64,000 nucleotides of DNA, taken from Escherichia coli O157:H7 (lineage in GTDB: Bacteria; Pseudomonadota; Gammaproteobacteria; Enterobacterales; Enterobacteriaceae). The stretch lies in the NCBI RefSeq assembly GCF_013167455.1, contig NZ_CP038332.1. The stretch is one strand, 5' to 3'. The first letter of the stretch is position 1; every line of letters begins with the position of its first letter. A program made the position numbers. Positions 37,001-40,000 of this stretch are shown here, piece by piece.

Positions 37001-40000
37001 TAGCGACAACCTAAAATGTATTTTGATGTTGTTATATAAATTAATGTATTCGGTGGTGCATCCAATTAGTAGAACATGTGTTTTTCGATAAACGCTCCGA
37101 TCACTTTTTCGTGGATCTCAACTGAGCGTGAGAAGCAGATGGTTTTACGAGTCAACCGCTTAATGCGGGTGCGTAGCGTCAGATTATTACGCTCAATGCG
37201 TTGGGTGAATATTTTGCCAGCACGTTATCACCGAACATCTCTCCCCCAGTCGGCGAACCCTTTATTGGACGTCAGCACAATGCTCGCTTTTTCATATCGA
37301 CGGTTCAGCAACCGGAAGAACAGACTGTGTTCCTGCGTAAAGCGCTGCTCCGGTGTCTTCCTGAACTGGCGAAGCAACATGGAACGGCCACCGGTATAAC
37401 CCATCGCTTTGATTTCCGCCAGGATAACTTCGCCGTTCCAGACATTCTCAGCCAGACGCATGTCGATATAGTCCATTTCGGCCATTTTGTGGCGTGTTTT
37501 TCTGGCCGGAGGTTCTGGGTATTTCAGGTAACGTCTGACCGTTCGTTCAGAGCAACCAATCTGAGTCGCAATATCAACAATATACGCACCTTGCTGGCGC
37601 ATTTGCTTTATCATGTAAAAGTCCTCTCTGCTCAGCATGCTGATGTCCTTTCTGGTGTGAGAACCTCAAGGAAACAACATGTTGGGTGGAGCGGACAATC
37701 CAAATGGTGAATTACCGTCTTATATCACTGGCGGATAAGGATAAGTACACGTCGGCAGTTCCGTCAGCACTGCGACAGCGTTGTCCTCGTTGCTTTTACC
37801 CGGTCATGCACAACGCCTGATGGATGAACTGCGTGCCCAGGGTTACCATTTTAAAGTAAAAACCGTGACGGAAAGCCTGCGCCGTCACGGACTGAGGGCA
37901 AAAGCTTCCTGGAATTTCAGTCCGGTCTGTTACCGCGCACACAGCCAGCCTGTGTCAGAAAATCTGCTGGAGCAGGATTTTTACGCCAGTGGCCCGAACC
38001 AGAAGTGGGCGGGAGACATCACATATTTACGTACGGATGAAGGCTGGCCGTATCTGGCTGTGGTCACGTGCCATTATTGGCTGATCAATGTCGTCACGCA
38101 TGACGGCACAGGAGCCCCCGGAACGTTATGCTACCGCATGTCATTTGCAAAAATGACAGATAGATATACTTCAATTTGAATCTTAACAATTAGCATGGGA
38201 ATGTTGTCAATCCTCTGTATGGAGCCACCACATATTGCAATTTTTGTTCTCTTTTAAAATATATTCCACGAGCGTCTTGTGGGACCTTTTGCTGTTATAG
38301 GGGGGCAGTTTGGATATCGAAAATTATTGTACGTTAAGGCTGAATTTCAATCGCAAAGCATAACCTTACCTTTCTGCTTACTTATGCAGTTCAAAGAGTA
38401 CCAACTCTGCAATTTTCGTTGCCACAGATGCAATATCGTTACTTTCCAGTCACCATGCCGCTGAAAGCCCACACCATGCGATAATCCACATCAAGAGCCG
38501 CTTTCTGTCCAGACCCGCTGTTGTGAGGTGTGAGGTGTGAGGTGTGAGGTGTGAGGTGTGAGGTGTGAGGTGTGAGGTGTGAGGTAGCCTGAGTTTAACG
38601 GACAGGCCGATGAAGGACGCCGTTACCGGGATAATGTAAGAATCTTTTTTTGAGTATGTCAACATAACCTGAGGCAAAGTACCTCAGGTTCCAGTAATCA
38701 GCCGACCTGACAGTCTTCTGTTAGCCCTACAGATATGTCGTGTAGCTAACCGCGCATGTCAAAGCCGGATTTTTGAAAATCTCTATAAACTTCCGGATTG
38801 TTGAAGGCCGGGAATTTAGCTTTATGGGCTGCTGACTTTATCGCTTCGCAATAGGCTTTATCGCCATTACTGGTTGATATTTTTAACGCCGTGCCATCCC
38901 GGGAGAATTCCATATGCAACCTGCATTTTTTCCTTTTCCATTTTTGCGGATCATCAAGTTTAGCATTAATTGCATCCCTGATTCCCCGTGCCTGCTCCCC
39001 CCATTCATCCTGATCATCCCAACGTCCTGAACTGCAACTACCCAGGGCTGTAGTTTTATGGCAATTTGAAGGATGTAATGGCGCACATCCCGCCACAAAG
39101 CTGACTAAAATAGCCAGTATAACGATTTTCTTTACCCCCATATATTGCTCCTCAACCCATATAGATCTCAGTACCATAGCTCTGTCAGAGCAAAGAAAAT
39201 CTTAACTAATACAAGTTAAGATTTTTAATATCCACTCCTCATCCCTACATTCCAGGTGATGGTGGCGTCCACTCATTATCCTGAACTGGAGCATAAGATG
39301 CGCCATGCCCCCCGGATATGCTTTTCTGTTGCCTGATATATTCGTGGTAGTACTGTTCACTACGCTGACGATGTAAATCCACATCCGGGCGGCTGATTAC
39401 AAAGTGTCCATTTCCGGTTATTCCAGCTGCATTATGCCAGGCCACCATTTCCGCAAATACATCATTAAACTGTTGATATGAGCCTTCCGGTTCAAAACCC
39501 ATTCCTGGCTCACGATCAAACAATACAGGAGCAATCAGATTCAGCTTATCCACCAGTTCATTTCTGTCCTGATGATGGTAGAACACCACACGGTCCCCAT
39601 AATCCACACAGACTAACTCGCCATTCCTCCGATCACGAAAACGCACACTGCCATCTTTCTGCAGACGGGCTTCGAGAACGCCAGTGTCTTCATAAAGTGG
39701 AGTTCCTCCCGGTTCACAGAGAATCACGCAGCGGTCGGCATTCGTTGTTCGTCGCTTGTCTTTGCGACGATCACGATAATCCCAGCCACGTAACTGTGAT
39801 AATGCAGCTCTGTCTCCCTGTACCGCCTGTTGCTCCACCCACTGCCGGTAGGACAAAGGATACCACTTACCCTCCTCAATCAGTGACAACCGCTCTTCCT
39901 TCACACTCTCCTTCAGCCTGATCAGCGCCTGCATACGCTGCACTTCCGCAATATGGTAATGCAGCTTACGCAATTGTGGATCCCGGAACTGCACACGGAT

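Follow-up and report, generated by a model that had tools for sequence, protein, structure and literature searches.

The (GTGAGGT)9 array of an Escherichia coli O157:H7 virulence plasmid is the typing locus VNTR-36, very probably a neutral microsatellite at the junction of two truncated modules

The DNA analysed here (the window) is a stretch of 64,000 nucleotides of a pO157-type plasmid of Escherichia coli O157:H7 (assembly GCF_013167455.1, contig NZ_CP038332.1), which carries the gene toxB (27450..36959, minus strand, 3169 aa) and, to the right of it, a heptanucleotide array at 38523..38585 (no strand assigned). This array is the variable-number tandem repeat (VNTR) locus VNTR-36, also named O157-36 or Vhec7, a long-established and already known typing marker of pO157. 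As a preliminary description of the window had stated, the array is perfect: reading of the sequence and a regular-expression search both gave exactly (GTGAGGT)9 with zero variant units, and Tandem Repeats Finder (TRF) reported 38522..38585 with a period of 7, 9.1 copies, 100% matches, and a score of 128. The heptamer GTGAGGT occurs nine times on the plus strand of the whole window (regular-expression search), every copy being within the array, while about four scattered copies are expected by chance; nine copies in perfect tandem are thus far beyond chance. The pO157 of strain Sakai is identical to the window over 1500 bp to the left and 1200 bp to the right of the array and has 10 copies at this place versus nine in the window, so that the two plasmids carry the 10-copy and the 9-copy alleles of VNTR-36, respectively.

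The PulseNet primers for VNTR-36, whose sequences were printed by Jenke et al. (PMC3321953), each match the window at a single site with 0 mismatches: GCCGCTGAAAGCCCACACCATGC at 38457..38479 on the plus strand, and GGCGTCCTTCATCGGCCTGTCCGTTAAAC at 38593..38621 on the minus strand. The two primers point toward each other, with the array between them, and the VNTR-36 amplicon of the reference strains maps to no other place. According to Table 1 of the same study, VNTR-36 is equivalent to Vhec7, has a 7-bp repeat, and is located outside any open reading frame (ORF) on the EDL933 pO157; 13 alleles in the range of 3-15 repeats are listed, the diversity index is 0.87, and null alleles account for 44.1%, part of them traced to insertions of IS3-family elements (PMC3321953). 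The same synonymy and the 7-bp unit are given in Table 1 of another study (PMC3768571). The array in the window agrees with this locus in its 7-bp unit, in its bracketing by primer sites without mismatch, in its position on pO157 outside annotated ORFs, and in its polymorphism with null alleles; the range of 3-22 copies and the diversity of 0.88 obtained here stand against the published 3-15 copies and 0.87, and nothing essential differs. The name O157-36 reportedly comes from Keys et al. 2005, and Vhec7 from Lindstedt et al. 2003. VNTR-36 is one of the eight PulseNet loci for multiple-locus VNTR analysis (MLVA), by which E. coli O157:H7 is subtyped in outbreak investigations, and sizing it across isolates by polymerase chain reaction has been routine surveillance for about 20 years.

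The array sits exactly where two unrelated truncated modules join. The outer end of the left module is a Tn3-family terminal inverted-repeat-like sequence, GGGG...ACGTTAAGG (about 38301..38342, plus strand). This stretch alone is matched by thousands of plasmids, in some of which the match lies under features annotated as "Tn3 family transposase", and a Tn3-family transposase gene in pXD35001 overlaps the match with its 3' end. Of an aminoglycoside kinase gene of APH(6) type, only the 3' part remains next to it (38340..38522, minus strand); this remnant stops precisely where the array begins and has a nonsense change relative to its intact homologue. Salmonella plasmids match the window over 38332..38522 and have an intact kinase gene there, encoding 275 aa in one of the retrieved pieces (L004); the Pfam family APH_6_hur matched that protein with an E value of 1.5e-72 and the remnant in the window with 3.9e-4. 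The homology to the kinase gene ends at ...ccagacccgc(t/a)gtt, the last base of which directly precedes the first heptamer. An IS3-family transposase fragment (37781..38179, plus strand), for which RefSeq has a pseudogene at the equivalent position, lies farther left. The earlier placement of the array next to this insertion sequence (IS) fragment holds only approximately, as the remnant ends at about 38179 and the immediate left neighbour is the Tn3-type repeat, followed by the kinase remnant up to 38522.

Between the left and the right modules there are only the heptamers and a 17-nt flank, agcctgagtttaacgga (38586..38602, no strand assigned), which accompanies the heptamers in pO157 and in O26:H11 plasmids and matches no identified neighbouring module; we call it the orphan flank. 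The right module is of IncI/K type. It begins with a backbone intergenic segment 3' of a lipoprotein gene (38603..38745, no strand assigned), its left limit is at about 38596-38603, and homology to the IncK2/Z plasmid pSH262-2 extends rightwards from about 38596. The lipoprotein gene itself (38746..39177, minus strand, 143 aa) encodes a TolA C-terminal domain (Pfam TolA, E = 5e-14) and is the nearest intact gene to the array; the distance from its stop codon to the right end of the array is exactly 160 bp, in line with the roughly 160 bp noted earlier. It is followed by an N-terminally truncated remnant of the relaxase NikB (39245..41218, minus strand), annotated by RefSeq as "relaxase NikB, incomplete, missing N-terminus". 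Where the flanking modules occur in other contexts, neither of them has a repeat at the corresponding place.

The polymorphism of the locus was investigated with window positions 38482..38625 (the array with 40-bp flanks) as query against all complete RefSeq genomes of E. coli. The locus is present in 317 of the 5426 genomes and always on plasmids; the 367 matching places are all plasmid-borne, and no annotated feature lies beneath the match in pO157. In a systematic 60-row sample of the 317 genomes, intact alleles had three copies (one genome), four (five), five (nine), six (eight), seven (one), eight (six), nine (four), 10 (seven), 11 (three), 13 (five), and 22 copies (one genome), and the 13-copy and 22-copy alleles were verified by reading the sequences. 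The plasmid collection additionally contained an 18-copy allele. For the 60-row sample, the computed diversity is 0.88, essentially the published figure. The match spans are longer or shorter than the query by multiples of 7, and all 12 arrays read at the sequence level were perfect and free of variant units, which is the signature of rapid whole-unit turnover. Alleles that differ by whole units and homogeneous arrays are what a microsatellite evolving by slippage is expected to have. A serial passage experiment in EDL933 recorded two single-unit insertions at Vhec7 in 99 lineages, corresponding to 8.6e-5 per generation (PMC3777172), and together with the 3-22 copies in pO157 of complete genomes this bears out the earlier expectation that the tract is prone to slippage. 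According to a further study, the median copy numbers are 3, 6, 6, 9, and 6 in clades 2, 3, 7, 8, and 12, respectively, and allele size tracks clade (PMC10062581).

Several circulating plasmids have an interrupted array or none at all. In pCFSAN059540, an IS1203/IS629 element lies within an array that had six copies prior to the insertion, with AGG at both borders, which is consistent with a 3-bp target duplication. In pNIID93_1, the array has six copies and IS1203/IS629 lies about 60 bp left of it, and in pO157pv15279, IS30 abuts the first 1.7 copies and the DNA to the right is deleted as far as traK. In the retrieved plasmid pieces, the IS-disrupted loci are at 2316..3670 of L007, 723..2043 of L013, and 2001..2867 of L014. 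Such IS1203/IS629 and IS30 events or deletions would account for the null or oversized VNTR-36 amplicons of the MLVA literature, in agreement with the published IS3-family insertions (PMC3321953). In pZ1322PEC0082-2 (CP148560.1), the left module is cut at the same base, zero heptamers follow, and the sequence continues with an ordinary backbone segment. About 180 bp to the right of that junction (approximately 3452..3486 of the retrieved piece, L002), this plasmid has another heptamer repeat, (ACGCAAA)x4, and in other plasmids the matches to this segment vary in span by about 14-17 bp, so that it may also be variable in copy number.

The shortest form of the array was found in other large toxB plasmids. 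Plasmid pCFSAN027350 and the plasmid of strain 2013C-3277, both from Shiga toxin-producing E. coli (STEC), have the left module, exactly two heptamers, and the orphan flank beside toxB, and the serotype of CFSAN027350 and 2013C-3277 is O26:H11 (PMC6667211). The same junction with exactly two heptamers is present in p07_3636-1. These two-copy plasmids are 146-181 kb in size, and two of them are documented as STEC O26:H11; the arrays are at 4042..4055 of the retrieved piece L005 and at about 3083..3096 of L015 and L016. In the two-copy plasmids, a truncated end of ISEc23 (IS66 family) or IS629 comes after the orphan flank, in place of the IncI/K segment.

The coding potential of the array is confined to one strand. 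TGA closes each of the three frames of the repeat on the plus strand, whereas none of the three is closed on the minus strand, and an ORF with a TTG start, which begins within a hairpin 3' of the lipoprotein gene, spans the array at every copy number with three alternative C-termini that depend on the copy number modulo 3. In the 9-copy frame (38450..38677, minus strand, 75 aa), the last 24 residues of this ORF are the tail of APH(6), covering Pfam positions 224-247 of 252 below the gathering score. This tail makes the ORF a chimera created by the junction and not a gene, and no protein family beyond the kinase tail was found for it in Pfam. No coding sequence is annotated at the array by RefSeq or its annotation pipeline, PGAP, or in Sakai, where none lies between pO157p55 and pO157p56; the preliminary description was therefore right to regard this ORF as an artefact. 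The allele lengths fall into the three modulo-3 classes with 13, 19, and 18 genomes (p = 0.54), a weak test as the genomes are interrelated.

Regulatory signals and structures near the array were equally sparse. The number of promoter-like and terminator-like sites in 37700..39400 was not above that in shuffled sequence, and no Rfam match was found near the array. Both strands of the tract have a folding energy of 0 kcal/mol, with no intrastrand structure, and this ruled out DNA secondary structure as the driver of instability. The hairpin between the lipoprotein gene and the array (38666..38690) is perfect, has an 11-bp stem, and is kept in the IncK2/Z plasmid pSH262-2; it is stable but has no U-tail and was not called a terminator. 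The 3' region of the lipoprotein transcript folds far better than shuffled controls (RNA fold, z = -3.35).

We infer that VNTR-36 is very probably a selectively neutral heptanucleotide microsatellite among degraded DNA, with no intact gene on either side, whose length changes by replication slippage. Slipped-strand mispairing at replication would add or remove whole 7-bp units, and such turnover would keep the array homogeneous and yield many alleles among O157:H7 isolates, which is why the locus serves MLVA subtyping. Slippage is the favoured mechanism because the experimental events were of a single unit (PMC3777172) and because of what is generally known of short-unit repeats, while neutrality is suggested by what circulating plasmids tolerate at this place, namely an IS inside the array, IS30 with a deletion, the absence of the array, and its reduction to two copies in O26:H11. 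Some points weigh against this interpretation. Neutrality is argued from the anatomy of the locus and from allele patterns, the modulo-3 comparison of related genomes being a weak one, and from sequence alone slippage cannot be told apart from RecA-dependent unequal exchange. In addition, a sigma-70-like site on the minus strand (38662..38633, 10/12 matches) points at the array; the scan that returned it gave fewer such sites than the shuffled controls. To the established locus the present analysis adds the sequence-level account of the junction, the chimeric nature of the ORF, IS1203/IS629 and IS30 as a cause of null alleles, and the two copies in O26:H11 toxB plasmids; these details leave the understanding of plasmid biology unchanged, and the practical value of VNTR-36 was already established.

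The preliminary description had further suggested that changes in copy number could alter a local transcript or that the array could be the remnant of a phase-variable locus. A phase-variation (contingency) switch of a local transcript or of the spanning ORF, or a remnant of one, is very improbable. A 7-bp unit does shift the reading frame at each gain or loss, and it does so here in a minus strand through which an ORF stays open at every copy number; however, this ORF is a junction chimera without a family past the kinase tail and is unannotated in every sampled pO157, the 57-aa hypothetical protein that PGAP annotates over the 2-copy allele of p07_3636-1 being a point in its favour. Similarly, a weak -35/-10-like site lies on the minus strand about 48 bp upstream of the array, but promoter-like sites are not above chance and the alleles show no frame preference. 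A contingency locus has its repeat in the coding sequence or in the promoter/5' region of an intact gene, and this array has neither, because on the left it adjoins IS fragments, a Tn3-type end, and a kinase remnant with a nonsense change, and its right-hand neighbour is the lipoprotein gene, which is convergent and turns its 3' end to the array; downstream of the array, both strands lack an intact gene, and the plus strand is closed by stops. IS insertion, deletion, or absence of the array in circulating plasmids also argues against a switch, and the flanking modules lack the repeat in their other contexts, so that nothing points to a phase-variable gene as its ancestor. Among simple-sequence contingency loci, the hmw1A and hmw2A promoters of Haemophilus influenzae contain 7-bp tandem repeats whose copy number changes at high frequency by slipped-strand mispairing; those arrays are placed between the promoter and an intact adhesin gene, whose expression is tuned by the copy number. 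The array in the window is like them in its 7-bp repeats prone to slippage, and unlike them in that both of its sides lack an intact gene and a demonstrable promoter and in that neither frame nor length is preferred. It is likewise most unlikely that array length has any phenotypic effect, for example that the minus-strand ORF yields a small chimeric protein subject to phase variation, or that the array tunes antisense or read-through transcription between the transposon remnants and the remnant operon of nikB and the lipoprotein gene.

A role of the array as a functional DNA element is hardly credible, be it as a protein-binding iteron, as a spacer, or as a site relevant to plasmid maintenance or recombination. 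The array is kept in most pO157 and its minimal 2-copy form in the O26:H11 toxB plasmids, and the same plasmid has presumably functional repeat arrays elsewhere, for example the 43-bp array at 55235..55404. A range of 2 to 22 copies, an IS within the array, and plasmids without it nevertheless fit poorly with a dosage-sensitive binding site; the unit has neither dyad symmetry nor a fold, the heptamer with its flank is found in no other species representative, and the array is surrounded by pseudogenes, with the loci for replication and partition far away. An alternative that accepts both the locus identity and its neutrality, and attributes the length changes mainly to RecA-dependent unequal recombination between plasmid copies, is unlikely as well. 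More than one copy of pO157 is present per cell at division, so sister copies are at hand, and the very long alleles of 18 and 22 copies, together with the multi-unit jumps reported for O157 VNTRs generally (PMC3777172), would suit such a mechanism. Both experimental events at this locus, however, were single-unit gains, the classic signature of slippage (PMC3777172), and a 63-bp tract is a poor substrate for RecA according to general knowledge of minimal homology lengths.

As for the origin of the array, it may go back to a short proto-repeat at a recombination junction that was later extended. The 2 copies kept by the O26:H11 relatives lead us to suggest, tentatively, that it was perhaps born de novo from a 2-copy proto-repeat at this junction and was expanded only in the O157:H7 plasmid lineage; if true, this would be a case in which the birth of a microsatellite in bacteria can be dated. 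The heptamer with the orphan flank gave 0 matches in 100,044 species-representative genomes (one per species). Two candidate sources do not explain the origin of the heptamer, namely the truncated ISEc23 end to the right of the 2-copy allele and the sequence that replaces the array in pZ1322PEC0082-2, which is ordinary plasmid backbone. The orphan flank was also compared by eye with the IncK backbone; it agrees at 8 of 15 positions, which is too short to call, and no claim is made.

A search with (GTGAGGT)3 gave many matches elsewhere, but they are in unrelated genomes with conserved flanks of their own. Arrays of GTGAGGT/ACCTCAC with 3 to 82 copies occur at many separate loci within single unrelated genomes of several phyla, including Silvimonas terrae (L019-L023, L038-L046), Halomonas halmophila (L047-L051), Stenomitos frigidus (L065-L069), and Chitiniphilus (L072-L074). 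In Silvimonas, the arrays have one conserved flank (...acaatctgg) in common, and this points to a dispersed repeat element that contains the heptamer array inside it; none of this relates to the pO157 context.

The window contains other repeats as well. VNTR-37 (O157-37), the second MLVA locus of pO157, is present as (CAGTAG)x4.3 at 46422..46447, and its published primer sites are at 46371..46407 (plus strand) and 46510..46536 (minus strand) with 0 mismatches. It resembles VNTR-36 in being a short-unit slippage VNTR that is used in typing, and it shares the plasmid and the window with it. It differs in that it is a hexamer placed inside an ORF, L7083 (PMC3321953), where changes stay in frame, whereas VNTR-36 is a heptamer among gene remnants. 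The sole Rfam match of the search was the sok antitoxin RNA (RF01794) at 41556..41727 on the minus strand (92.6 bits, E = 1.5e-20), which adjoins a hok-family toxin gene according to the annotation of related pO157 records. The 43-bp array at 55235..55404 has 4.0 units with 88% matches (TRF score 242), and GGGACCGTGGTCCC is present in each unit. The partition centromere sopC of the F plasmid consists of twelve 43-bp repeats, and the array presumably resembles a centromere of this F-type kind.

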